A stretch of 64,000 nt of DNA from Eledone cirrhosa. Lineage: Eukaryota. Shown here piece by piece: positions 2,943-63,769 of this stretch; position 1 is the first letter of the stretch; the number at the start of each line of letters is the position of its first letter. The DNA lies in contig OZ024740.1 in assembly GCA_964016885.1 (NCBI GenBank), forward strand, positions 311,736,001 to 311,800,000, written 5' to 3'. The position numbers and the translations under genes were made by a program. Below the pieces are notes generated by a model. The model saw only the letters and a list, made by a program, of their open reading frames with translations, made no database searches and was not told the DNA's origin.

Positions 2943-2973
<31 letters not shown>

Positions 2974-3086
2974 GTTGTAATAAAATGAAAACGAAATTTC
3001 ATTTCTCACTCTTAGTACGGCACTTACTTAAATGTAAGTATGTATGTATACGTACATACATATATGTATACAGACGTACAGTAGCA

Positions 3087-3134
<48 letters not shown>

Positions 3135-3138
<4 letters not shown>

Positions 3139-3571
3139 CATACAGGTACACATACATATATGTACGCATCAGTTTAGCGGACGCTTATTATAGCGCCCGC
3201 TTTGTTCGTTTGTAAACAAACTGAACAGCCTGAATTTATGCCGCACGGTGTTAAGGCAACCACGTCACCTTTTTGTTCAACACTGACACAGGAACGATGT
3301 ACTAGTTTCAAGCTTGTTAGCTATCATCAGCACCGTATATCCATCTGCCAGATAGTTGAACGTTCGAAAGTATATACTTTCCTTATGAAAATTAACGGCT
3401 GAGCAGCCTAATTTGCATATCGAGTGAGTTAAATCGGTCAGGCGCACCGAAAACGATGAGTTGTAATAAAATGAAAACGAAATTTCATTTCTCACTCTTA
3501 TACGGCACTTACTTAAATGTAAGTATGTATGTATACATACATACATATATGTATACAGACGTACAGTAGCA

Positions 3572-3575
<4 letters not shown>
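3135..3575 (-). mobile_element. ORF-less hammerhead-containing element (unit ABC), PLE/retrozyme-like
   Basis: Flanked by (TA)n. Partial tandem copy at 2972-3090, partial direct copy at 4173-4246, inverted copy at 4244-4578. Contains an HHR. Confidence 0.75.
3295..3335 (-). ncRNA. Minimal type I hammerhead ribozyme
   Basis: Minus strand: cggtg CTGATGA t-agct aaca agct-t GAAA ctag TA catcg. Stems I and II pair; stem III is the palindrome CTAG. Confidence 0.8.
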
Positions 3576-3650
<75 letters not shown>

Positions 3651-3655
<5 letters not shown>

Positions 3656-4153
3656 TAAGTTAAAAATGTACATCTACATATGCATACTGAAATACTAGTA
3701 TGCATATGAATACACACACGTATACATATGTAGATGTAACAAGTCTTTCACTGGTTACTTTACTGTGAGTAACCCAGCTATTCTGTATGTAAACACACAG
3801 ACAAACCGGTTTTTAGAGTCATACTGGTTTTCGAGGAAACACCTTTCCTCTATTCTCCAGAAAGCCAGACAAGGAATATTGAACTAGTTTCGTTGTTGTT
3901 ACAACTCATCAGCAATATTTACCTATCTACCGGCCTTTCTGGAGAATCGTAAAAGCACATATCGTTATATGCTTTTTCTATGAAAATTAGTAGTGGGCAG
4001 ACTAATTTGCATAGAGTGTGAGTACGCACCGGTTCAGCGGAGACGATAAAAACAAATAACGAAACGAAATTAAATTTCGTTTCGTTTGTAACTCACTTTT
4101 GTATGACTGACGCTTAAACAATTAAGTTAAAAATGTACATCTACATATGCATA
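3651..4153 (-). mobile_element. ORF-less HHR unit D with ~36-bp terminal direct repeat
   Basis: ACAATTAAGTTAAAAATGTACATCTACATATGCATA at both ends, with (TA)n flanks. Related to unit ABC around CTAATTTGCATA. Confidence 0.7.
3875..3919 (-). ncRNA. Minimal type I hammerhead ribozyme
   Basis: Minus strand: aatattg CTGATGA gttgt aaca acaac GAAA ctag TT caatatt. Perfect 7-bp stem I and 5-bp stem II. Confidence 0.85.
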
Positions 4154-4379
4154 TATATATATATATATATATACATACAGGTACACATACATATATGTAC
4201 GCATCAGTTTAGCGGACGCTTATTATAGCGCCCGCTTTGTTCGTTTTATTACAACTCATCGTTTTCGGTGCGCCTGACCGATTTAACTCACTCGATATGC
4301 AAATTAGGCTGCTCAGCCGTTAATTTTCATAAGGAAAGTATATACTTTCGAACGTTCAACTATCTGGCAGATGGGTATA

Positions 4380-4420
4380 CGGTGCTGATGATAGCTAACA
4401 AGCTTGAAACTAGTACATCG
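4380..4420 (+). ncRNA. Minimal type I hammerhead ribozyme (inverted copy of 3295-3335)
   Basis: cggtgCTGATGAtagctaacaagcttGAAActagTAcatcg. Confidence 0.8.
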
Positions 4421-4596
4421 TTCCTGTGTCAGTGTTGAACAAAAAGGTGACGTGGTTGCCTTAACACCGTGCGGCATAAATTCAGGCTGTTCAGTTTGTT
4501 TACAAACGAACAAAGCGGGCGCTATAATAAGCGTCCGCTAAACTGATGCGTACATATATGTATGTGTACCTGTATGTATATATATATATATATATA

Positions 4597-5352
4597 TAAT
4601 GTATTTTTAACTCTGATACTGGTTCAGTCTAATTCAACCGGATTGGTCTGTCCCAGTCATTCATTGAGCAACATCGGTGAGGTTGGCACCATTAACTCAC
4701 GGTTGGATGTGGATGCATTCATGTATATGTGTGTGTCCGCATGTATCTGTGTGTTTCTAAATATATTGTTCATAACTCCCTCTGGTCGAGTAATCTTTGA
4801 AGTGTGGTGACTGCTGGAAAGCTGCCATTACTCATACTTATCGCCTCCCTCACCACCTCTTCTACGGCTTCGATATAAATACCCCCTCCGCCTCCGTGGT
4901 ATTTTCTTCGGGGTTATAAGAGGCTTAGCTCTGTTTCTCGACCGTTATATCGCGTGACTATCTCCCCCTCCGCCTTTTGGGATTCTTTCTCACGTCATGT
5001 AGACGCGTTCTAGAAGCTAGAAAACGAGGTATCCTCTTGATAAGTCGGCAGACCTCGCAAGGGCTGTATATCTTTATGATGTATTGTTTTTGTTTATGCC
5101 ACGAAACTACGTAGTCGAGGAATCTAGGAGCAGTTTAGGTATGATACATTTTATTACTAATTATATCTAAATGTTTCTTCTCTCTTCATAATGTATTTTT
5201 AACTCTGATACTGGTTCAGTCTAATTCAACCGGATTGGTCTGTCCCAGTCATTCATTGAGCAACATCGGTGAGGTTGGCACCATTAACTCACGGTTGGAT
5301 GTGGATGCATTCATGTATATGTGTGTGTCCGCATGTATCTGTGTGTTTCTAA

Positions 5353-5358
<6 letters not shown>
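4597..5358 (+). mobile_element. ORF-less HHR unit E with ~170-bp terminal direct repeat (period ~591 bp)
   Basis: 4597-4767 is repeated at 5188-5358, with (TA)n on both sides. TATAAATA near 4873 lies upstream of an HHR. Confidence 0.75.
5032..5121 (+). ncRNA. Hammerhead ribozyme variant (U3-A8 core, long stem II)
   Basis: tcctc TTGATAA gtcggca...tgccac GAAA ctacgtag TC gagga. 5-bp stem I, palindromic stem III, GUC site. Confidence 0.65.
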
Positions 5359-5392
<34 letters not shown>

Positions 5393-5440
5393 TGCTACTG
5401 TACGTCTGTATACATATATGTATGTACGTATACATACATA

Positions 5441-5478
<38 letters not shown>

Positions 5479-15338: not shown

Positions 15339-15534
15339 TTGATATAGACGTGATTTACTTTGCTCCGGATTTTTACGGATTATTGTCAAAAAAACTGCGA
15401 GTTCATTGCTCAATTTAATAACATTGTTTAGTTTAACCCCTTGCCTGGGCCGTCAGACGTTGAGTCAACAAATTTTCGCCCCTTTCTGGGGCGAAATTTT
15501 CAATTTTCATCTCAAAACTGTAGACTTGGTGGCA

Positions 15535-16695
15535 ATGGATGCCATTTCCACCTCGCACACTGTCGTGAGTGCCACGCCCACTAAGAAAAGTGGTGGAGGG
15601 AAGGTAGGAGTACAAAGCTTGCAGCCTTCCCCCCTCGCATCATCGAAAAACGTGAAAAATATCGAAACCGCGAAACCAAACCCGGTAAATAATACCAGCA
15701 CCAACAACAACAACAATGACAATAACACCACAACCAACAACAAGAACAATGACAATAACACCACAACCAACAACTGCAACAATAGCAACACCAAGGAAAA
15801 CATGAACAATATTACCAACAGTGACAGTAACAAAAAAGACAACAACACCAAAACAACATTCGCACAGACTGTAAAAAAAAACGAACTATACACGCCAATA
15901 GACATAACAAATGCTAAACAACTATTACAAGACGCAAAACAATTCGTGACTTTTGGCGAAAACGGTGCTTTTAGCGTCAATTCTCCACAGGAATTACGTA
16001 GAGAGGCTGTCTTGAAAACTGTGGTTTTCAGGACAATATCGAACGAAACAAGAAAACCAGCTCAATTATCACAAAATGAAATTGCGCTGGTTCTAAAAGA
16101 TGCAATGAAGGACTTAACCTTCATACAAAAAGGTAAACTGTTTGGTAGCATTTCGGTGCTAATGAACAACCAGTCAACAGCTCAAAAGTACTCGGTATCA
16201 CCGATTGTGTCCCCCCGCTTCACCTTTTTCCCCACATACAGGGGAAAAAGGACACAAAGAATAAAAATAATGAGTATCACACCAAATGTAAATATTTGGT
16301 GGATACTATGTGGAATCATTGACTTTGACGAAGACAAGATAATTTCAATAGGAAAGTCCTCCGGAGGTGTATTTGGTGGGACCACCGTAGAAGTTCTGGT
16401 GCAAATGAGCCCAGAACGAATAGCCAATATCCCACAACGCGTGCCTCTGGACGGGCCAACTTATATAAACATTTCAGTGGAGGGAAGGCGGCCGTCATGT
16501 TACCACTGCTTAAGCAGGGGTCACCTGAGGGCTGCCTGTCCTCAATTAACGAGTAAAAAAAAAGGCTCTTCTGCCAACCCCGAACACAACAACACAACCA
16601 CCACCACCACCACCACAACAACAACAACAACAACCACAACAACACGGAAAAATAACAACACAAAACACTGTTCCACCCAACCCCTCCCCACCTAA
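15535..16695 (+). CDS. Tx1 ORF1 (gag-like nucleic-acid-binding protein); C-terminus probably continues frameshifted to ~17368
   Basis: First ATG at 15535. Zinc knuckle CYHCLSRGHLRAACP; Asn/Thr low-complexity tracts. Confidence 0.75.
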   Translation: MDAISTSHTVVSATPTKKSGGGKVGVQSLQPSPLASSKNVKNIETAKPNPVNNTSTNNNNNDNNTTTNNKNNDNNTTTNNCNNSNTKENMNNITNSDSNKKDNNTKTTFAQTVKKNELYTPIDITNAKQLLQDAKQFVTFGENGAFSVNSPQELRREAVLKTVVFRTISNETRKPAQLSQNEIALVLKDAMKDLTFIQKGKLFGSISVLMNNQSTAQKYSVSPIVSPRFTFFPTYRGKRTQRIKIMSITPNVNIWWILCGIIDFDEDKIISIGKSSGGVFGGTTVEVLVQMSPERIANIPQRVPLDGPTYINISVEGRRPSCYHCLSRGHLRAACPQLTSKKKGSSANPEHNNTTTTTTTTTTTTTTTTTRKNNNTKHCSTQPLPT

Positions 16696-17410
16696 AACAA
16701 ATACAAAAGCAACCACAACAAAACCCCAAAATATGCCCCTCCCCAACAACACGGAAGAGGACTCTGTATCAACGTCACCCAGTGACGACGTGGGAGAACC
16801 CTTTCAACAGGTGAAAAGGAAAAAAAAGGCACCACATTAACAAAAATGCCACAAACACACAGCCACCAGCACAAACAGAACAAACATCACAAATAAAAAA
16901 CCCCACCCCTCCCCAAAACATAACACGTACTATAAAACGCAAACACGCACAAGAACAACAAACAAAAACAAACACAACACAACAAAACTCTATACATACA
17001 TTAACAAGAACAATAAAACGTTGATGAAAGCGATAGAAAATGACCCTTCGGTGGAAACCGAAGGGATCACTTTCACCTACGCAGCGAACACACCGCACCT
17101 AATGATGATTAGGGTCCCAACGGAAACCTATGTAACTTTGAAAAAGAACCATCCAATGCATGTGGGGACCAACTGCACCAAACCACATAACAGCGTCCTA
17201 TTGAGATGTTTCCCCACCCCCACACCAGACACCCACACCCCACCAAACACCCTAATCCCACCACACACTGATGTCCTCACCCCACCACAAACCACCATCC
17301 CACCAAACAACCCTTCCAACACCCCCATGGAAATTGTGCAGCCTGGTCCCCAGGAGACGAAGAGGTAAGTAATTTCCTTTCCTCTTCCTTTTTACCTCTT
17401 CAGCACCAAC

Positions 17411-18676
17411 ATGGCCAATATAAGAGTTGGATGTGTGAATGCACGCGGCTTGGGGATGTCCTGGAAACAGGGCAAACTCTTAAATGACCTCAGGTCGCAC
17501 AGAGTGGATGTAATGGTTATTTGCGAGTCCAGGATCAGCAGCGAGCGCCAACTGGCCCCCATCTTCGACGACTTTGAGATCTACGCATCTCTCTGTCAGC
17601 CGAGGGGTGGGAGTGGGGTTGTCGTTCTGCTGCGAAAATACCTGGGTCTTGCCACACAGAAGGTACACCTGGACCCGGAGGGTCGACTGGTGGTTTTAGA
17701 CGTCGGCAGTGGTGAAGGTGGAGCTTTCAGGCTGGTGGCAGCGTATACCCCATCTGGGACACCGCGACCGGACTTCTTCCGACGCCTGGAGAATTTCCTG
17801 GGTACGTCTCGCTCCTTGCTTTTAGTGGGGGACTGGAATGGTATCCTGGATGCACGTTGGGACTATGTAGGGGCATGTCCCGATAGAGGGGGGTGTAACA
17901 GCCTCAAACGATTAATCGGCCGATTTGATCTGGCCGATAGATATCGACTAGATTTTCCGACTGTGCCACGGTGGACGTGGAGTAATCGCAGCGGAACATC
18001 TAGGTCGTACCTAGATAGGTTCCTAGTTAGAAATAAGGATAGGGACATATTAAGCTGTCCACGAATGTTCATGGTTGACTATTCGGATCACAAGTTGGTG
18101 ACCGGAGTGGTCAACCTTGATAGAACTCATAGACAGGGACCCGGTTACTGGAAGCTAAACTTGTCTTTACCGACAAACAAAGCTTACAGTAAGCGGATTA
18201 GCACACTAGTTAAGCAGCGTTTGACGGGGGCAATTGTCAACAACAGGTGGTGGGGCTCTCTCAAGAGAGAAATTAGAATAGAATCGATAGGTTTTAGTCG
18301 GGAATTAGCATCAGATAGGAATAGAACTGAAAGGGAATTAACAAATAGAGTAGAAGAGGCGATTAGGAGTGGCAACGTGGCCGGCGTGCTGGCGTCAAGA
18401 ACGGCCCTAGACCAGTTCTTTGATGCGAAGCACGAGGGCTGCGTTGTCAGGAGTAAAATACGTGCTCTGGGTAACGAGGGAGCCAAAGCTGTTAGCTGGG
18501 CCCGAGTGACAGAGGCAAAAAGTGGAAACAAGTCCACGATTCGGTCTTTGAAGGACCAGGATGGACGCGTGATCCTTGAACCTGAGCGGATGAGCGCGGC
18601 CTTTCAACGGCGCTTTGCACGACTGTTCGGGGGGGGGGGGGGCATGGATTTCGGCGGTGTCGGCCTACGCCGATGA
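17411..18676 (+). CDS. Tx1 ORF2 N-terminal part: AP-like endonuclease plus linker
   Basis: Motifs NARGL, CES, GSGVVVL, GDWN, WTW, SYLDRF, SDH, GPGYWKLN. Confidence 0.9.
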   Translation: MANIRVGCVNARGLGMSWKQGKLLNDLRSHRVDVMVICESRISSERQLAPIFDDFEIYASLCQPRGGSGVVVLLRKYLGLATQKVHLDPEGRLVVLDVGSGEGGAFRLVAAYTPSGTPRPDFFRRLENFLGTSRSLLLVGDWNGILDARWDYVGACPDRGGCNSLKRLIGRFDLADRYRLDFPTVPRWTWSNRSGTSRSYLDRFLVRNKDRDILSCPRMFMVDYSDHKLVTGVVNLDRTHRQGPGYWKLNLSLPTNKAYSKRISTLVKQRLTGAIVNNRWWGSLKREIRIESIGFSRELASDRNRTERELTNRVEEAIRSGNVAGVLASRTALDQFFDAKHEGCVVRSKIRALGNEGAKAVSWARVTEAKSGNKSTIRSLKDQDGRVILEPERMSAAFQRRFARLFGGGGGMDFGGVGLRR

Positions 18677-20006
18677 CGTGACAGTAATGGTGTCGTGCGC
18701 CTCGGAAATCGGGCAGATCGGCACCTTACTGGAGGAATATGAAAGGTTCACAGGAGCCAAGCTGAACCGGGACAAGTCCGTCGGTTTGCAACTCGGGACG
18801 TGGAAGGGCAAAACGATACCCTCCGACGGCATCGTCGGACGCTGGACGGAGGGACCGGTGAAGCTGCTCGGGGTCTGGTTCGGACCGGACCTCCAGGTGG
18901 AGAAAAACTGGGACGAGGTAACGGGCAAGGTGTTTGCACTCGCCCAGAAGTGGGCCGAGTGCAAACTATCCCTGAAAGGTCGAGCGGAGGTGGCGAACGC
19001 TTATATAGCGTCCGTCATCTACTACCGCTTGACCGTCGTGCCTTGCCCAGAGAAAACACTCGCCAAAATGGAGCGGGCGCTCTTCCGATTTCTTTGGAAG
19101 AAGCGGGCTCCTTTGGTGAGAAGATCCATCTGCTGTCAACACCCTTCGAACGGAGGGCTGGGGCTGCCGTGGCTGACGATGCGTAGACACGCATTAAGGC
19201 TACGGCACCTCCAGGTATTCCTCACCGGTCAGCCGGTGTGGGCCCTGTTTGTGAGGCGAGCCTTTCCGAGACTCGTCTCACTCACCGAGCTGCAATCATG
19301 GGTCAAGCAAAGACCGAGAAAAGTGGGCGACTGGCACATTGAATGTGCCCAGGCGCTCACGGCCCTCTGGCAAGCGGATCCGGCAATCAGTGGAGACTCA
19401 ACCTCAACATTCTATAGAGGGTTGGTGCGCAGTAAGTGCGACGACGGTCTCGGAGAAGCTCTGGGCATGGAGGAAGACGAGCTGGCCAGTCTGTTCGGTA
19501 GGACGTTTGGCCCGGGACCGATGGACAACTTCCAAAAGTCCCTGGCTTGGCAATGTTACCGAGGAGCTCTACCCGTTCGGGACAAGCTCTACAGACACGG
19601 GCGCCCGGGTAGGGACCTCTCGAAGAAGATCTGTGCGTGACGAGGAAACCGTCGCACACGCATTCGTACACTGCCCGGGCGTTGCTGACCTGTGGGGCTA
19701 TGTAGAACGACTACTGTCGCGGGTGGGACCAATCCGGTTGACCACCGAGAACATTGTCACAATCAAACCGCCTCCCCCTTTCAAAAACGAAGGAGAGGCG
19801 GAGTTGTATGGTGGACAAGGTTAAAAGGGCTGAGGTCAGACACCTATCTCTCCGGCCAACAACTGGTCTTTTTTTTCAAGTACCACTTTAGAAGAAGGAT
19901 CAGAATGGAGAGAGAGGTGCTCTACCCCAGCAAGTTTTATGAAAGATGGGTGAAAGTAGCGAGAATGGCCCGAGTGAATGGGCCTTCTCTCTATATCAGC
20001 CTGTAG
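18644..20006 (+). pseudogene. Tx1 ORF2 C-terminal RT remnant (frameshifted)
   Basis: AYADDVTV, GAKLNRDKS, LLGVWFG, LSLKGR, GGLGLP, EETVAHAFVHCP. RT domains upstream of YADD are missing. Confidence 0.85.
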
Positions 20007-22465: not shown

Positions 22466-22511
<46 letters not shown>

Positions 22512-22681
22512 TATAGATAGGTAAATATACACGGGTGTGTATGATTGTGTATAGAAGATTATATTAATAAGAGGAATTCCAACTTTGTCTGATTTACTCG
22601 TTTTATTTACAATCCTTTAAAATATATATAATGGTATTATAATGAAATAGTATGATAGAATATTAAATTCTAAGTGTTAAT

Positions 22682-22720
22682 TGAACAAGTACTTTCATGC
22701 TTTCGCAATCTTCAGGTTCA
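22682..22720 (-). ncRNA. Minimal hammerhead ribozyme in the inverted pLTR
   Basis: Reverse complement of 26290-26328. Confidence 0.8.
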
Positions 22721-23599
22721 TGATATGTGGTGACAGTCGAGTTTGCAATTTTCAACTGTAATGAGATGGGTAAATTTCCTACCTTTTATACATTTTATAC
22801 AGAGAAAAGTGGCTCCAGAATGCAAAGCCCTGTAAACTGTATTTCGACCAATCAGTGTGTAGTTTCACTTAATTACTACAGCTGATTGGTTTAAGCGTCA
22901 CGGCTGGTTGAGCATGCTAACGACCAATAGTCATATCCAACGTATCAATTGTTTTGCTTTTTTTGAAATGATGAAAATAGCATTTTCTATTAATCATCAC
23001 CATCAACATCACTTTTATTATTATTATTATTGTTGTTGTTGTTGTTGTTAGTGGTCGTGGTCATAGTGGTAGTAGAAGTAATACCCCTAGGCGTTATTAT
23101 TGTTCATTTAGCTTGGGTTTGAATTTATCAATAAAATTCTTTTCTTTGATTTTTCTCTTGATTTCATTTGGGCTGTGTAATTTGTAGAATGGGAATATTA
23201 TAAATATTCCCTGACCACATGTTGCCAGGTGGCCGCTTAGGGGTATCTGACGGACATTTGGGTCTCTGATTTGTTGACGGTGTACCCGTGCACGTTCCGA
23301 TAGTGCATTTCCAGTTTGACCGACATATAGTTCTTCACAATTCGGGCATTTAATGCAGTAAATTAGATTTCTGCTTTTGCAGTTCATATTTGCATTTGTG
23401 AATATTTTTCCAGTTTTTGTTTTCATATATTGACCGGCGTGTATGTTAAAAATAATGCTAACAGGAAGAAAAATAATATACAGAATACCAAAAATAGGAC
23501 AAAATACATAACGAAACCAAATATAATATCACGACCAAAAGTTCATCAAGCGAACACCAACAGGAATATAAATCCTGAACAGAGAAAAATTCATTTTTT

Positions 23600-25906
23600 A
23601 ACGTCAGGACAACAAAAACCGGAAAAAGAAAAACTCCAGGAGGAAACATACCCAAAACAGCTGTACACGTAGATCCTAAAATAATTAATTTATCTAAAAG
23701 AGATCTTGACAATGATGAAATGCAAATTCTGTCAAAAGGACTGAAATTCACACCGACTCCAACAGTCAACCACCAAGAACTGAAGGAGGATACCCAAGAA
23801 TTCTGTCGAAAATTACGTCTTGTAGAATTCTTCGCTGATAAAAATAATGAGAGTGATGAATCACTAGTAAAGAATAAATCAAATTTCACTCCGCCAAAAG
23901 GAAGAAATATCTATCTCGACCAATACATTGACATCCTGTCTAAATTTCCTCTTAGACATAATACTAATGTTAGGCCAAACATTAACAAATCAGAAATGTC
24001 TGCACTTAAACGTATACAAAATGATAAAACAATAATAATTAAACAAGCAGATAAAGGGGGTGCAGTTGTTATAATGGATACTGAATACTACAAGGATTTG
24101 GTTGAGGAACAACTGAAAGACACAACATTCTATCATGAAATACCGTCAAATATAGACCACAACATCATGAAGAAGATCAACAACCTGGCTTCAAAATACC
24201 ACAACTCATTTACTGATAAGGAAAGAGACTACATCACCAATTTTGAGCCGAAACCCAGCAACCTGTATGGCCTACCGAAAGTTCACAAGTCAAAAGAAAT
24301 ACAACTGGCAGTAAGAGAACAAAACAGTGAGTACATTAAATTATTACACCCAAAAGACTTAAAACTTAGACCTATTATAGCTGGTCCAACATGCCCCACT
24401 CACCGTCTAAGCAATTTTGTTGACATTATTTTGAAACCACTATGTATTCACATACCCAGTTTCATCCGGGATGATATCGACTTCCTGTCCCATCTTCCCA
24501 AAACCACGGAAACGAATTCACTTCTACTCAGTTTTGATGTGGTAAGCCTTTACACCAACATTACACATGATTTAGGAATAAAGGCGGTTAAATACTGGGT
24601 GGAAAAACATAGAGAAGTGATTCCCATTAGATTCACAGCGCCATTTATATTAGACGCAGTTAAACTTATTCTGGAAAACAACACTTTCTTCTTCAATGGA
24701 AAGAATTACATCCAAATTAGAGGCACAGCGATGGGAACGAAGTTTGCTCCCGTTTACGCGAACTCTGTAATGGGATACTTAGAACAACAACTCTACCAAG
24801 AAATAGAGGAAAAATATAGTACTGACTTTAGAAAGTACATTGAAAAATCTTGGAAGAGATACCTTGACGACTGTTTCATCATCTGGACAGAATCTCTAGA
24901 TACTCTGGATGAGTTCAATATCCTCCTGAATAACCTACACCCATCTCTCCAATTCACAAAAGAGATGAGTAGGACCAAATTACCATTCCTAGATATAATG
25001 ATAATCAAAAACGACACCACCATTACCACGGATATATATTATAAACACACAGACACCCATCAATATCTGAATTTTAAGTCGTGCCATCCACCTCATACAT
25101 AACGCAACATCCCATACTGCCTAGCCAGAAGAATTTGTACCATTGTAGAAGATACGAATACCAGGTACAAACGCCTAACAGAACTAAGAGAATTTTTGCT
25201 CAAACAAAAATACCCATCTCTACTTATAGAAAATGGCATACAGCGGGCTATAAAAATACCTATACAACAACTTAGAACAACCCAAAGAAGAAGAAACCAA
25301 GAACTGGTCATACCATTTATAATGACACACAACCCATGTCACCAGAATATCTTCAACACTGCCAAAGCAAACCTACCGATCATTGCTCAAAGTAATGAAT
25401 TAAAAGGCTTAATCACAGATCGATCTTTGACTCTTAGTAAAAGACAGCCAAAAAATTTGAAGCAATTGCTAACAAAAGCAAAGTTTGACCTTAACAACAA
25501 AGACCAATCATTCACTGTATCTAAATGCAATGATAATCGATGCGGCACATGTCAATCCATACACGCCGGTCAATATATGAAAACAAAAACTGGAAAAATA
25601 TTCACAAATGCAAATATGAACTGCAAAAGCAGAAATCTAATTTACTGCATTAAATGCCCGAATTGTGAAGAACTATATGTCGGTCAAACTGGAAATGCAC
25701 TATCGGAACGTGCACGGGTACACCGTCAACAAATCAGAGACCCAAATGTCCGTCAGATACCCCTAAGCGGCCACCTGGCAACATGTGGTCAGGGAATATT
25801 TATAATATTCCCATTCTACAAATTACACAGCCCAAATGAAATCAAGAGAAAAATCAAAGAAAAGAATTTTATTGATAAATTCAAACCCAAGCTAAATGAA
25901 CAATAA
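23600..25906 (+). pseudogene. PLE reverse transcriptase-GIY-YIG polyprotein with one premature stop (TAA 25100-25102)
   Basis: IINLS..L...E..IL.KGLKFTP, KQADKGG, YGLPKVHK, RPII, FDVVSLYTNI, GTAMG, RYLDD, FLD, HPPHT*RNIP, CNDNRCGTC, LIYCIKC..C...YVGQT. Both ORF-track pieces are in the same frame. Confidence 0.92.
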
Positions 25907-26069
25907 TAACGCCTAGGGGTATTACTTCTACTACCACTATGACCACGACCACTAACAACAACAACAACAACAATAATAATAATAATAAAAGTGATGTTGA
26001 TGGTGATGTTTAATAGAAAATGCTATTTTCATCATTTCAAAAAAGCAAAACAATTGATACGTTGGATAT

Positions 26070-26230
26070 GACTATTGGTCGTTAGCATGCTCAACCAGCC
26101 GTGACGCTTAAACCAATCAGCTGTAGTAATTAAGTGAAACTACACACTGATTGGTCGAAATACAGTTTACAGGGCTTTGCATTCTGGAGCCACTTTTCTC
26201 TGTATAAAATGTAAAAATGTATAAAAGGTA
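26070..26230 (+). promoter_or_regulatory. Putative pLTR Pol II promoter (CCAAT boxes plus TATA)
   Basis: ATTGG near 26074, CCAAT near 26113, ATTGG near 26150, and TATAAAAG near 26220, about 70 nt upstream of the HHR. Confidence 0.5.
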
Positions 26231-26289
26231 GGAAATTTACCCATCTCATTACAGTTGAAAATTGCAAACTCGACTGTCACCACATATCA

Positions 26290-26328
26290 TGAACCTGAAG
26301 ATTGCGAAAGCATGAAAGTACTTGTTCA
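26290..26328 (+). ncRNA. Minimal hammerhead ribozyme in the PLE 3' pLTR
   Basis: tgaac CTGAAGA t-tgc gaaa gca-t GAAA gtac TT gttca. Confidence 0.8.
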
Positions 26329-26442
26329 ATTAACACTTAGAATTTAATATTCTATCATACTATTTCATTATAATACCATTATATATATTTTAAAGGATTG
26401 TAAATAAAACGAGTAAATCAGACAAAGTTGGAATTCCTCTTA

Positions 26443-26512
<70 letters not shown>

Positions 26513-29417: not shown

Positions 29418-29516
<99 letters not shown>

Positions 29517-29529
29517 ATATATATATATA

Positions 29530-30850
29530 TATATTGTTATACTTTGGGAGGGTCATGTTGCCAATAAGAAACACACGCACCAGTTGCTTTCACTTCAATT
29601 TATTATATATTTATATATTTATAAATTTATAAATTTACAAATCTACAAATCTATAAATTTCTGGTTGGTTGGTTCCACAACCAGATAGTTGTTTATATAA
29701 ATAGTCATAGTCCTTTCGTCACACACTCTGTGACCTCTTCAGTGACTGGGGATTCCTTTCTTTGTTTCTGTGCCTTTCCTTTCTTCTGTCCTACGCCATT
29801 TTGTTTCTGTGTGTGTGTGTTGTGTGCTCAGTTTGCGCATGCGCCACATCCGGGTGTCTGTGTGTGTTTGTGTTCATTTATCTATTTGTTTATTTATTTA
29901 CATGTTGTTGGTTGGTTGTTTGTTCTATGTGTGTGTGTGTTTTCATTTTGTCCTTAATTGTAAGTTGTGATGTTGCTGTTCCACTCATGTTTTCTATTTA
30001 ATTTTGGTTGTAATTCTTTTATGCTTACTGCCTCTGTAATTTGTCTAAACATTGCATCTTTTCTGTGTGTAGATTCTATTTTTATTTCTATGTTCTCTAA
30101 TTTACCCTTGTGTTCTATCTTAGCATGTTGGTAGAGTACAGATGATTCTTTATTATCTTGAAGGTCTCGCCAGTGTTCATTTATCCGTTCCCCTATACTA
30201 CGAGCTGTCTCACCTATGTACACTATATTTTTGTTTCTACATTGTCCTTCAGTACATCTTATGCTATACACTACATTTCTAGTTTTACAGTTAATATGGG
30301 GGCTTATTTTACAGGTTATACATTTCTTATCTATACATGAGGGTCTTTGGAACGGGTATGTCTTGCTAATAAGTGTTTTTACGGAGGTACCTGGTCTTTC
30401 TACTATCTTAATATTGAGTTTATGTTTATTTAGGGCCCTTCTAAATCTGTAGGCTAGTTCGCCTCTAGGGGTTGTATTGATGAACATTACACTCTGGTAT
30501 TTATTGCTATCATACCATGAGTTTATTCTATTGGTTTTGTTCCTAGTTCTTTCTATTCTATTCCAAAATTTGCTCCTATACAAGGGGCAGGTCCCATTTA
30601 TGTCATTATTTACCATTTTTTCCCATTTGGTTCTGGCTCCTCTATACACTCTGATTCTATCTCTCTGATTGTAGCCAGAGAACTGCATACGGTGGATGAA
30701 GTGTTGTATGTGTCTCTCTAGTTCTTCGGGGTTGCACATGCGGGACACATTTCTCATCACCCGTACCAAATCCGCAATCAGTATGTTGATTTTGGTATGG
30801 TCCGAAATGGCCGAGTTTCGGTGGATCAGATGTTTGGAAGTCATGGGTTT
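29530..30850 (-). mobile_element. 5'-truncated PLE of a second lineage (RT thumb, Zn linker, GIY-YIG; ORF 29954-30844 open)
   Basis: FSGY, CIDKKCITC, NVVYSIRC, YIGETARSIGERINEH, RQITEAVSI...PKLN; HHR in the 3' UTR. Confidence 0.9.
29703..29747 (-). ncRNA. Minimal hammerhead ribozyme
   Basis: Minus strand: agtca CTGAAGA g-gtcac agagtgt gtgac GAAA ggac TA tgact. Confidence 0.75.
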
Positions 30851-30994
30851 TTGGCGGGTAAATTCAACGTGTTAACAAGGGAAATATTATACTTTCCGCT
30901 CAAACATTCCGAATAAAAGCTCTCGACCAGATGTTATTAAACAAACACAAATAATTAACCAATCAACAGAATTGTCTAATTGTCTAATTGAGTA

Positions 30995-42137: not shown

Positions 42138-43702
42138 AGGAGGTTATAGTTCACTTGAAGCATTGTGTAATGAGGTATAAACGTTTGAATATGTGTAATA
42201 AGGCCAAGACAATGCAGGTATGGACATAGAAAAAAGAATGCAATAGTGAAAGATATTGATGTGAATTCGTCTTTCACCTTGAATTTATTTAAATGTCCTT
42301 AATTTTCGAGATAATATCTCTTCTTCGGAGGGAAGTAAAGGTCTCAAACCAGCGTCTTTAAATTTCTAGCCAAGCTATGCTGACCGGAAATAGTATAGAG
42401 TATCTGTTCTAACTCTAATATCAAAGAATTAAAATTAGGTGGATAAAGAGTAGTCTCCCTTTAAGAGGGGTTTGTTTAGGTTTTATTTTTTTTTATTTAT
42501 TTTTTATTTTATTTTATATACGTGCCTGTATATGTGTGTGGGAGAATGCATGAAGGTGTAGGTATGTGGGTGTGTGTGTGTGAGTGTGGGAAGATAGGTC
42601 TAATCGTAAAAGTGGGGGGTAGGTGTTACCTGGTGTTAGAACTGGTTTTGTGTGTGTATGTGTGAGAGAGACTTCTTTTATTCTTATGTGGAGTGGTCTG
42701 GTGGTGCTACCTACGTAGAAGTTGTTGCATTTGTCACACTCTAGTCTGTATACTACGTAAGCCTGGTGGCATAGGTCTGTGTCGTTGATGGTGTCTGTGT
42801 CGTTGATAGGTCTGTGTCGTTGCTGCAGACTAGCCAACTGCCCCATCAACGACACAGACCTATGCCACCAGGCTTACGTAGTATACAGACTAGAGTGTGA
42901 CAAATGCAACAACTTCTACGTAGGTAGCACCACCAGACCACTCCACATAAGAATAAAAGAACACCTCAATACTAACGCTTCCTCATTTAAGAAACACCTA
43001 GTTAAATGCAAAAACACCGATAAAAACATAACAGTTAGGATAGAAACTAAGGAAAGAATCCTCGGCAATCTTAGAATTAAGGAAGCACTTATTATAGATA
43101 GAACACATCCACCAATCAATAATAGACTAGAGCTCAACACCCAATTTATAACCTGATAGGGCCTCTAGCCCCATTTTTACACACCCCACACACACGCACG
43201 CGCACACCTCCACTTATTCTCTCTCACACATACACACACAAAACCAGTTCTAACACCAGATAACACCTACCCCCCACTTTTACGATTAGACCTATCTTCC
43301 CACACTCACACACACACACATACCTACACCTTCATGCATTCTCCCACACACATATACAGGCACGTATATAAAATTAAAAAAAAAATAATAATAAAAAAAA
43401 AAACCTAAACAAACCCCTCTTAAAGGGAGACTACTCTTTATCCACCTAATTTTAATTCTTTGATATTAGAGTTAGAACAGATACTCTATACTATTTCCGG
43501 TCAGCATGGCTTGGCTAGAAATTTAAAGACGCTGGTTTGAGACCTTTACTTCCCTCCGAAGAAGAGATATTATCTCGAAAATTAAGGACATTTAAATAAA
43601 TTCAAGGTGAAAGACGAATTCACATCAATATCTTTCACTATTGCATTCTTTTTTCTATGTCCATACCTGCATTGTCTTGGCCTTATTACACATATTCAAA
43701 CA
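42134..43702 (+). mobile_element. Truncated PLE (GIY-YIG only) with inverted 5' copy
   Basis: VVYRLECDKCNNFYVGSTTRPLHIRIKEH...KEALII....PPINNRLE. Left arm is a reverse complement with an internal deletion. HHR-like cct CCGAAGA agagat att atctc GAAA at TA agg at 43553-43587 and 42297-42331. Confidence 0.9.
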
Positions 43703-44256
43703 TATATATATATATATGAATCTTGTTACTTTAGAGTTTTGGTGACTTCATAGAAGCCTCATACAAGATTCTTGTCTGAACGACCCTGTGAGTACACAGG
43801 AGAAACTCTAGTGTAACAAGATTCATGCTTAGCCTTAATAACTTCGTTATGAATATAAATAAACTTTCTGTTCCAATATTTTTTATTTTGTTAACAATAA
43901 ATAAATAAATAAATAAATAAAATACAGAATTATAGAACAATTACATTTTATTTCCAAATATTTTTTATAAATAATTGAGAGATAAACAAAAAATAACTTA
44001 CAGAATTGGTTCAATGACTTGGCAGTAATCTTTTCACAGAGTGGATTTATGATGATCGATCGACCAATCAAATTGACGCTTTCTGAAATATGAAAATTTC
44101 AATACTCAGCTCTGTCTACCCATCACTTTTTGCTAGGTCAATGAATGGTTGACATGCTGAAATTTTGTAATTATGGCTAAAATAATAGCGCTAGGTCTTC
44201 AAAATGCGCGCGCGCGCGGGCGCGGGCGCGTGTGTGTGTGTGTGTGTGTGTGTGTT

Positions 44257-50980: not shown

Positions 50981-51895
50981 CGAGGTGTGTCGAAAAGTTC
51001 CAGGACTGATGTCACAAAAGATTTATTTCAAACCCAAACTTCACACTAAGAGTTTTCTCCTTCAAAGTAATCCACCTGGAGTCCAATGCACTTTTCCACC
51101 CTTTTCTGCCACGCTTGCATGCACTCCTAGAAGGATTCTTCCGGGATCCTCCGCAGTTCCGTCGTCACGGCCTTTTTGATGTCGTCGACGTCTTCAAAAC
51201 GGGTCCCCTCCGGGTTGTACTCGAAGATCCATGACTCATCACCGGTGATGACTGTCCCTAGCAAGTCTGGTTCGGTTTCAAGACGCTCGAGGATGTCCTG
51301 GCACACTTGCATGAGTCGACCCTTCTGGTCATAGTTCAGCAGTTTTGGCACCATCTTCGCGCAGACTTTCCGCATGTCCAAATCTTCAGTGAGAATCATC
51401 CAGACGCTGTCCCGATTCATGCCCAGCTCATTTGCCACCAGTCGAACAGTCAGCCGACGATCGCTACGCACCATCTGCCTGACGCGCTCAACGTTGACAT
51501 CAGTCCTGGTTGTTGAGGGCCTTCCGCTCCTGGGGTCATCTTCCACGTCCTCGCGTCCTTCTTTAAACCTCTTGCACCACTCAAAAACACGTGAACGTGA
51601 CATCGTCTCATCTCCATACACTTGCTGCAGCAATCCTAGTACTTCTGACAGAGTTTTCCCCAACCGTACCAGAAACTTAAAGTTTGTTCGTTGCTCTGTG
51701 CTCATTGCTTGACGACCTGAAACAGAGGACATGTATATAAAATTATGAAGAAAAAAGTTTGATCGCTGCAGAAGCTAAGATTACAGTTACATACTCCAGG
51801 GGGATTACTTTGAAGGAGAAAATTCTTAGTGTGAAGTTTGGGTTTGAAATAAATCTTTTGTGACATCAGTCCTGGAACTTTTCTGACACACCTCG
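50981..51895 (-). mobile_element. Internally deleted mariner transposon with ~100-bp TIRs in (TA)n
   Basis: TIR CGAGGTGTGTC(A)GAAAAGTTCC... at both ends. ORF 51127-51732 has HTH, RSGRP, KMVPKLL and TGDESW, then jumps to G.RF.....IK, so two catalytic Asp are lost. Confidence 0.95.
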
Positions 51896-60548: not shown

Positions 60549-62631
60549 AGGTACCGGCCTGCCTGCCCAGCCAGTGGGATGGCGTCATCTTATGGCTAAA
60601 ACAGCACGAAGAAAGGGCCTCAGTACCCTGCGCGTCAATCGGGCCACTCCACGACGGCGGACTGCAGCCCGAGCGACGAGAGGCTGCTAAGAATCACAGG
60701 TTCCCAAAGGCCGCCATGGAACAGGACTAACCTTGCCATATGCACCTACAACTGCAGGTCTTTGGCAGGGGGTGCAAGGACTGAACCACCTAATGGACGA
60801 GAAGAAGATCAGGTGCGACGTGTTAGGGCTGTGCGAGACCCGCCAGTAGAAGGAGGCGAGTTCGCGATGGCAAGATGGATGCGCCGTGAGACTCGGGAAA
60901 GCAGAGGGTGCCAGATAGGTCGGAGGTATAGGGTTCATCGTAAACAAGTAATTGGCTTCGAAGGTCGCTTCTTGCCAGTTCATATTGTCACAGATTGGTG
61001 TACTGAACGTGAACCTCTCAGGGAAGGCCACCCTCAAGATCGTCTAGACCTACGCTCCCACAAGTGCCAGCGACGACGATGAAGTGGAAGAATTCTATCG
61101 CCAGCTAGACAAAGTGCTAGCTGTGAAGTCCACTTACACCGTCGTGATGGGAGACTTCAACGCAAAGGTCGGACAGGGACGGCAAGGGGAAGAGTATGTC
61201 GGAAGACTCAGCGTAGGAGAGCGAAATGAGAGAGGTGAGACGGCTCTACATCGGAAACAGCCTATGCAGGAAGAAGGAGTAGAAGAGATGGACCTGGGTA
61301 TCGCCAAATTCTGAGCACCGAAACGAGATCGACTACATCCTGGTCGACAAGCGACGCATACTACAGGACGTCTCCGTCATAACGCCATTCAACACTGGCA
61401 GTGATCATCGTCTGGTGAGGGTGAGGGTCGTCATCGACCGGACCAGGGAGAAGAAGGCGCTGCATTTGGCATCGAAGGGAGAACGCGTCTGGGTCTTCAA
61501 CGCGGCGCAGCTGCAGGAAGCCATCATACAGGAAAACTGGCGCCAAGGAGACGGCATAGACGCTGACTACGACTCACTGATAAGGAAACTGAAGGAGTGC
61601 TTGAGGAAGGCTAAGGGTGTGTCTCCGAGGGAGCGGAAGGGAAGAGTCTCGGAGGAAACTATGAAGTTGCTTGAGAAGAGGAAGAATATGAAGTGGACAC
61701 CTGAAGATCACCTCGAATATTCCCTTCTCAACAGAGTGATACGTCACCAACTGAAGAGAGACTTCGAGGCATACCAGATGGAGAAGCTCCTGAAGGCCGC
61801 AGAGGAAAAGAAGAACCTCAAGAAATGCGAGAGGGACATGGCAATGTACAGATCGGAGGTGACGACCCTGAAGAACACAGCTGGAGTACCGGTCAGCGAC
61901 AAGAGAGATTTGAAAAGGTTTGCGAAGACTTCTGTACCAAGCTCTTCAAGTCTGCCGGGAATGTGCAGCCGTTGCCGTCACTCCAACAGGAAGAAAATGT
62001 GCCACCCATCCTTGTCAGTGAGGTCGAAAGAACTACGATCCCTATGCCTGCTGTCTCACGTGTACAAGCTGTTCACGAAGATAATCCTGAACAGGTTATC
62101 ACGTCATCTGGACGAACAGCAACCGAGAGGGCAAGCCGGCTTCCGGAAGAACTACAGCACAATGGACCACATCTTTACTCTGACACAACTGCTTGAACGA
62201 GCGAAAGAGTACAAGATGCCTCTTTGCGTCGCGTTCGTAGACTACGAGAAGACCTTCGACAGCGTCGAAATCAACGCAGAGGCAAGGAGTCGAGGCGCAA
62301 TACGTTCAACTGCTCAAGGAGGCGAATTCCGGATGCAGAAGTCCGGCGTGAGGGACGTTATCACAGAATATATGCGCAGCAAGTTCAGATGGGCTGGACA
62401 CGTCGCCCGGTTCACCGATAATCGGTGGACCCGCGCAGTTGCCGAGTGGTACCCGCGCGAGCGGAAACGACCACTCGGAAGGCATCCACGAAGGTGGAGT
62501 TACGATTTTAGGAATATGATTGGGATTACATGGATGAGGAAAGCACGATCCAGAGAGGAATGGGCGGCGTGCTGTGACGAGCGGCGCCAAATGGACGCCC
62601 GACAGACTGGTCGGTCAAGGTGATCAAGGTG
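60377..62631 (+). mobile_element. RTE-clade LINE with both ends, internally deleted and frameshifted
   Basis: TSD ATTTATAAAAT (60366-60376 / 62632-62642). APE motifs GDFNAKVG, EIDYIL, SDHRLV. RT QAGFRKNYSTMDH, FVDYEKTFDS. C-terminal WAGHVAR..DNRW...W.PR..KR..GR..RW. Tail (TCAAGGTGA)2. Confidence 0.92.
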
Positions 62632-63290: not shown

Positions 63291-63332
63291 TTCAAAATAT
63301 TTAAAAAATAGATATTCTTGTGATCAATTATG

Positions 63333-63395
63333 TTTTATTATACACATTTCAGAGGTACTGAGTCAAGTTTAACAGTACGTCCTCATCAGATAAAA
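63333..63395 (-). ncRNA. Hammerhead ribozyme motif (probable inverted pLTR of the PLE at the window end)
   Basis: Minus strand: ttttat CTGATGA ggacgtactg...cagtacctct GAAA tgtgta TA ataaaa. Confidence 0.65.
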
Positions 63396-63769
63396 TAAAA
63401 TCATACATGGCATACCCTGACATGGTAGATGGTTAAGATTCAATCAAGGTAGTGATTAACTTATGACAAAACTCAATATTTATACCCTAATATTGAGAAC
63501 ATGAGATAACGTAATACAAACAATAGAGAGGGCGCGTATAATAGATTTTAAGAAATACATGGCATCAATATAACAGTTATAACATTTTTAATTTTTAAAA
63601 ACTACTAGAGAAAGAGGAGGGAAAAGAAAGCATAGAGGAAGAAACAGCTGATGTGATAATATATTTAGTATGTGGCTTTAGGAGACAGATGAGAGATGAT
63701 TAAAGAGAGAGAGAGACAAAGGGGAGTAATTTATGTTCAAGTTTCTATACACACAGATTTCTATATAAT

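Follow-up and report, generated by a model that had tools for sequence, protein, structure and literature searches.

Three hammerhead retrozyme families nested at a (TA)n locus of Eledone cirrhosa, likely moved in trans by PLE enzymes

A nested (TA)n locus and its hammerheads

Between positions 2973 and 5444 of the window, by which we mean the whole 64,000-nt stretch of Eledone cirrhosa DNA that was analysed (contig OZ024740.1), lie three kinds of non-coding repeat unit, ABC, D and E, bearing four predicted hammerheads in total (Table 1), all at the places given by the original prediction. The D and E monomers are 467 and 592 nt long, and that of ABC has ~442 nt and an internal (TA)n besides, which brings it to 486 in the window. 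Mapping of the monomers onto the window identifies ABC as one head-to-head insertion spanning 2973-5444, with a left arm running from 4246 down to 2973 (a partial, a full monomer, then 118 nt), a right arm running from 4240 up to 5444 (a partial, then 56 nt), and a 7-nt overlap of the two at 4240-4246. D and E were inserted later, each with its own 3′ end, and as both lie inside ABC's own internal (TA)n the locus comprises three events, two of them nested. The predicted presence of three units in a single (TA)n locus therefore holds, but they are nested, not stacked. Their terminal repeats, anticipated as ~36, ~115 and ~170 bp, were found as 36 bp in D (3648-3683 = 4115-4150, 97%), ~118 bp in ABC (about 2973-3090 = 3460-3575) and 169 bp in E (4599-4767 = 5191-5359, 100%), and the inverted copy, likewise foreseen, is confirmed at 3117-3475 / 4240-4598 with 99% identity. 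Open frames in the 2972-5445 region are all of low complexity, and none of the units carries the RT + GIY-YIG ORF of an autonomous PLE.

Table 1. Features of the nested locus in window coordinates; all hammerheads are predicted
Feature	Position	Strand	Basis or remark
(TA)n target, left flank	2957-2972	.	sequence
ABC left arm, terminal partial monomer (positions 1-118), end = fixed site 2	2973-3090	-	
(TA)n internal to ABC monomer	3091-3133	.	between monomers in ABC arrays examined
ABC left arm, full monomer; 3 private variants relative to right arm	3134-3575	-	
Hammerhead 1 (ABC): core CUGAUGA, stem III palindromic, predicted to be cut after GUA (3300/3299)	3296-3334	-	sequence
ABC internal (TA)n, split by D insertion; remainder 4151-4170	3576-3651	.	
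Nested D insertion: 467-nt monomer + ~33 nt, 3′ end = D site 1	3652-4150	-	
Hammerhead 2 (D): stem I of 7 bp, G10.1-C11.1, predicted to be cut after GUU (3882/3881)	3875-3919	-	
ABC left arm, 5′-truncated start (monomer 365-440)	4171-4246	-	
Head-to-head junction, 7-nt overlap common to both arms	4240-4246	.	
ABC right arm (monomer 101-440)	4240-4579	+	
Octamer ATGCAAAT in block common to ABC and D	4297-4304; also 3411-3418 (-), 4005-4012 (-)	+	possible promoter element, doubted
Hammerhead 3 (ABC), predicted cut 4415/4416	4381-4419	+	sequence
Nested E insertion in right arm's (TA)n: 592-nt monomer + 169 nt, 3′ end = E site 2	4599-5359	+	
Hammerhead 4 (E): U3-A8 in the core, stem III a 10-nt palindrome, predicted to be cut after GUC (5116/5117)	5032-5121	+	
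ABC right arm, terminal partial monomer (1-56), end = fixed site 1, then (TA)n	5389-5444	+	

Each repeat unit of these short tandems has one type I hammerhead. ABC and D share the CUGAUGA core and the stem III palindrome ACUAGU, ABC having a GUA site and a U.U mismatch that closes stem II; E has the core UUGAUAA (U3-A8, a covariant known from a Schistosoma PLE, PMC4209133) and a bulged stem II with a long loop. A strict hammerhead descriptor matched D and E in the region and nothing in 2,000 shuffles, missing ABC because of the U.U pair, and in Rfam at E<=1 the D hammerhead alone appears among the matches listed (best 150 of 175), as HH9 with 38.6 bits and E 3e-6, below the 52-bit cut-off. A D variant has one stem II pair swapped compensatorily. 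To judge from sequence, the U.U closing pair of ABC and the GUU site of D may make the predicted cleavage poor. The GC content of the monomers is low (0.36-0.43), and their modelled circular folds are predicted to be far more stable than those of shuffles (z -8.2, -12.3 and -4.7, 25 shuffles each). Another widespread hammerhead type, with AU-rich stem I and an AUA site, lies at window 63331-63397 (-); similar motifs are present at loci L034, L047, L062, L063, L086, L153, L154 and L201, and probably mark another element family.

By sequence comparison E is unrelated to ABC and D, whereas these two share homology over 59 nt surrounding an octamer (78%, E 2e-8) and over 60 nt at the hammerhead (68%). 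Positions 98-121 of the ABC monomer (window 3455-3478, around site 2) also resemble the reverse complement of the D hammerhead core (79% over 24 nt, E 0.09). Both ABC and D carry TATGCAAATTAG plus a TATA-like box, a weak lead towards a putative snRNA-type promoter, since the exact octamer stands at -76/-77 in 2/15 U6 loci fetched and a one-base variant in 5 more. Against such a promoter, the octamer-TATA spacing is about 5 nt shorter in ABC and D than in U6, the octamer is absent from the 5 U2 loci examined and mutated in an active D sublineage, and the T5 runs of D would terminate Pol III transcription. In the promoters of the U6 genes L091, L092, L093-L096 and L099 a TATA box near -30 is preceded, near -77, by the octamer or a version of it that differs in one base; a repeat stands in place of this upstream element in several U6 copies of the C19 array.

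Elsewhere the window contains three PLE families. An ORF of PLE-1 (23579-25906) with RT and GIY-YIG domains by Pfam belongs to an insertion at 22510-26447 that has an inverted arm and a 54-nt tail on its left end only; the ORF is interrupted by a stop at 25100-25102, and there are minimal hammerheads close to 26290-26335 and within the mirror arm. A CX4CxxC motif before the GIY-YIG domain suggests a PLE of Neptune/Nematis type, going by the motif as given in PMC8557442. PLE-1 is very active in the genome, with 4.2-kb tandem and inverted multimers and many intact copies whose 775-aa ORFs are identical over the queried domain. A truncated PLE-2 at 29512-30871 (-) has its own hammerhead and ends in (TA)n/(GA)n; open frames of this family elsewhere in the genome reach ~1,260 aa, and its 60-nt tail is family-wide. 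A PLE-3 fragment at 42176-43708 is an inverted insertion with GIY-YIG at 42761-43156. Other repeats of the window are the putative remains of a non-LTR retrotransposon at 15343-19640 (to judge by a zinc-knuckle gag-like ORF, an endonuclease-like ORF and an RT ORF of which the C-terminal part is present), what we take to be a mariner-like transposase fragment at 51127-51774 (-), and presumably an RTE-like LINE fragment at 61283-62623 (+).

Insertion anatomy across the genome

ABC, D and E are young genome-wide families with thousands of copies. DNA searches of the genome with the three units returned 1,378, 494 and 1,306 first-look candidates, and the top full-length matches are mostly 97-100% identical. 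Exact core patterns occur 16,882 times for ABC and D together and 6,051 times for E, and a third pattern gave 1,373 matches, mostly from an older ABC subfamily in which the internal (TA) run is only about (TA)4-5 in most copies shown; the reversed-pattern controls gave 0.

We scored 71 insertions (ABC 20, D 23, E 28) from 90 loci merged into 69 regions with 1.5-kb flanks, a sample of best matches to the unit queries and not a random one. Within it 101/113 of the 3′ ends coincide with one of two sites that are fixed for each family, the sites being about 62, 71 and 165 nt apart in the three families, and (TA)4+ adjoins 103/113 of the 3′ ends. Some of the 12/113 ends that lie off-site resemble alignment breaks, though not all are accounted for. 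The 5′ ends scatter, with 1/113 within 3 nt of the predicted cut. As to the start and end permutation raised with the original prediction, the terminal repeats do not permute at random: variation is confined to the 5′ ends, and two sites fix the 3′ ends. More than half of the insertions (42/71) are inverted; in 31/42 both outer ends are on defined sites, site 1 being paired with site 2 in 31/31, and the other 11/42 have at least one end off-site or ambiguous. Arms are longer than one monomer in 68/113 cases and range from 0.05 to 17.6 monomers, so that the "slightly more than one monomer" seen in the window and predicted for each unit is one point within this spread. The families therefore combine a one-end tail with two fixed 3′ ends, an inverted 5′-truncated copy, partial tandems and a (TA)n target.

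The same anatomy is evident in the PLEs of this genome. PLE-1 ends at two sites 54 nt apart, followed by a TA run, in 29/30 loci, with paired arms discordant in 5/5 and in the window copy, 24/25 PLE-2 loci have their ends at two sites separated by ~60 nt, and the window copy of PLE-3 has a tail of ~48 nt on one arm only. A tail and an inverted 5′ copy have been described for PLEs (PMC8557442), and according to PMC11167929 the anole Poseidon PLE protein cuts both strands of AT-rich DNA in vitro, the tail being defined by two internal start sites with no need for hammerhead cleavage. As ABC, D and E leave the same insertion scars in (TA)n as the genome's PLEs, they likely borrow PLE enzymes. Our main reading, to which we give a probability of about 0.8, is that all three are non-LTR retrozymes with thousands of young copies, likely moved in trans by a PLE RT and GIY-YIG endonuclease.

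In this mechanism the PLE endonuclease would nick both strands of a (TA)n, and each nick would prime reverse transcription at one of two internal sites of an RNA that is longer than one unit and uncut (or circular). The cDNAs would run back through one or more hammerheads and be joined head-to-head, often via short microhomology. In the window the ABC insertion would have come first, with D and E then entering the (TA)n within the ABC monomer. Classical twin priming was considered for the window's ABC junction and rejected; the two-site model fits better because the junction recurs by microhomology and the outer ends are fixed.

Which PLE would supply the enzymes is a separate matter. The original prediction described ORF-less hammerhead retroelements copied from longer-than-unit RNA and likely mobilised by PLEs, and in this it is upheld; it also named the window's PLEs as partners, and here it falls short, as the units have no homology to the 3′ regions of these three families beyond microsatellite-like stretches. 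Nor did comparison with 55 PLE loci reveal any beyond such stretches, apart from one real match, a 78-nt E piece at L162 well downstream of the PLE. Neither PLE protein searches nor a hammerhead pattern search, with three PLE families compared, found an autonomous partner, the pattern search returning an older ABC subfamily. It is improbable that an ORF-bearing PLE outside those three families accounts for the units as its truncated 3′ ends (pLTRs), despite their PLE-type hammerheads (palindromic stem III, and the U3-A8 pair of the Schistosoma element), the homology of Xenopus retrozymes to pLTRs (preprint 10.64898/2026.07.22.740005) and the small number of families compared. Monomer follows monomer, without an ORF, through as many as 31 full units, and PLE protein pieces match only 8/120 unit loci, in each case a separate neighbour that is downstream, on the opposite strand, or set apart by its own end or a (TA)n. 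Units that were always 3′ ends of ORF-bearing PLEs, the finding that the original prediction held to be incompatible with it, are not what we see: in 0/120 loci is a unit the end of a PLE ORF. A pLTR ancestry of the units is possible; present-day dependence in cis on an ORF, for the copies examined, is not.

Recurring variants in an array of 31 monomers and another of 11 indicate array expansion at the DNA level, as would be expected of a satellite or a DNA rolling-circle (Helitron-like) repeat in which the hammerhead is incidental. As an account of the families this is very improbable, since it leaves unexplained why 3′ ends are fixed and paired, why 5′ truncation varies, why arms are inverted and why the tails match those of PLEs, as well as the conserved cores with compensatory change. 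The 31-monomer D arm, at C1:5.738-5.753 Mb (L205-L206), is a retrozyme insertion becoming a satellite by DNA-level expansion.

The RNA template

Retrozyme insertion by PLE enzymes, as we propose it, is compatible with two templates. We lean towards a tandem transcript left uncleaved as the commoner one, with the template now and then switched in register. The published retrozyme model would have the same PLE-driven insertion fed mainly by an RNA circle of one monomer, which the hammerhead would cut and ligate and around which reverse transcription would roll; as the main template this circle seems to us rather doubtful, but for some events, notably those that left very long identical arms, it is an almost equally plausible source.

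Indications of rolling come from a very young D sublineage of 69 copies at 7 loci, whose arms reach 17.6 monomers nearly without substitutions. At C18:30.95 Mb 24/24 full monomers are free of substitutions, with a single 3-nt deletion among them; at C1:30.83 Mb no difference separates the 18 full monomers or the partial ones; and the assembly contains no longer arm with the marker of this sublineage that could be the source. The avoidance of the predicted cut site by 5′ ends also fits a circle, and mussel, coral and axolotl retrozymes do make circles (PMC7229834). Against a monomer circle, the inverted arms at L047 and at L051-053 contain the same ordered monomer variants, which one such circle could not yield unless the arms converted each other later, a caveat that applies to these loci. 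In the chimeric D array L216 (C744) one haplotype gives way to another, in register, at about position 320 of the first full monomer, through a template switch or recombination. Long arms are concentrated in one haplotype, which would be expected of a length inherited from a tandem source. In vitro, moreover, uncleaved RNA was the dominant template used by a PLE (PMC11167929). Identical arms of 13-18 monomers thus favour rolling and mirrored heterogeneous arms favour linear RNA, the inference being blurred because arrays also lengthen at the DNA level.

Relatives of the units are present in four sequence runs, with pieces stepping back 588 nt in organisms B and C, although circles are indistinguishable from tandem DNA in those runs. 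A-to-I editing of the template, considered because of three clustered A>G changes, was rejected, as the changes form a haplotype common to 7 loci and A>G and T>C are about equally frequent among private variants (25 vs 24, p 0.23). The two sites of E are predicted to pair across the 165-nt tail. A unified picture, which we regard as speculative and on balance unlikely, would place these retrozymes in rolling-circle retrotransposition, where a PLE primes both nicked strands at two RNA sites, up to 18 rounds of one hammerhead-made circle are copied, and the RNA would be recruited by its shape and not by pLTR homology.

Relation to known elements and implications

Cervera & de la Pena (2020, PMC7229834) described non-LTR retrozymes, among them a circle-making mussel family, and named PLEs as their candidate mobilisers, and a recent preprint (Li, Clavereau & Pollet 2026, 10.64898/2026.07.22.740005) argues for PLE derivation from co-occurrence and Xenopus pLTR homology. 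ABC, D and E resemble these animal retrozymes as ORF-less tandem monomers with one type I hammerhead each, a GC content of 36-43%, strong self-pairing, thousands of copies and co-occurring PLEs. They differ in monomer length (450-590 nt, against 150-450 in PMC7229834 and 51-972 in the preprint), in the PLE-style minimal cores of ABC and D and the U3-A8 core of E, and in the two-site tail, inverted arms and (TA)n target, which do not figure in the available text of either account. No pLTR homology was found for our units among the three PLE families compared, and circles, which mussel, coral and axolotl retrozymes make, are for ABC, D and E a prediction. Of the Xenopus retrozyme dimers in the same preprint, 1/9 was active and 8/9 inactive.

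With EN+ PLEs the families share the one-end tail, the inverted 5′-truncated arm and the partial tandems (PMC8557442), as well as AT-rich or (TA)n targets and a hammerhead with palindromic stem III (PMC11167929, PMC4209133), but they are without an RT or GIY-YIG ORF and their tails are longer, 62-165 nt against 30-40 reported for PLEs and 48-60 for those of this genome. Chlamys PLEs such as MRC1 are likewise non-coding, head-to-tail multicopy insertions moved by a PLE (PMC8557442); however, MRC1-type elements come from algae and as a rule have a 3′ end similar to that of their autonomous partner, and no such partner was found for ABC, D or E. In accord with the original prediction, which knew of no such families in cephalopods, our literature search, with Repbase, Dfam, subscription journals and the preprint's supplements, which may list comparable families, outside its scope, found no published description of any of the three. 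The retrozyme class and its PLE link are already published; what the present analysis adds is direct evidence from insertion anatomy and a system open to test.

Arguments on how animal retrozymes integrate have so far drawn on co-occurrence and, of late, on homology to pLTRs. In this genome the insertions of three young, abundant families themselves bear the PLE signature, beside intact and recently active PLEs; this lends support to a route that has been proposed for animal retrozymes but little tested. With short RNAs, mapped start sites and candidate enzymes they also offer a ready in vitro system, which could test trans-mobilisation, the rule of one site per strand, and circle against tandem template. 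With more than 24,000 exact hammerhead cores targeting (TA)n, and ABC carrying its own target, the nested repeat clusters of this genome are explained.
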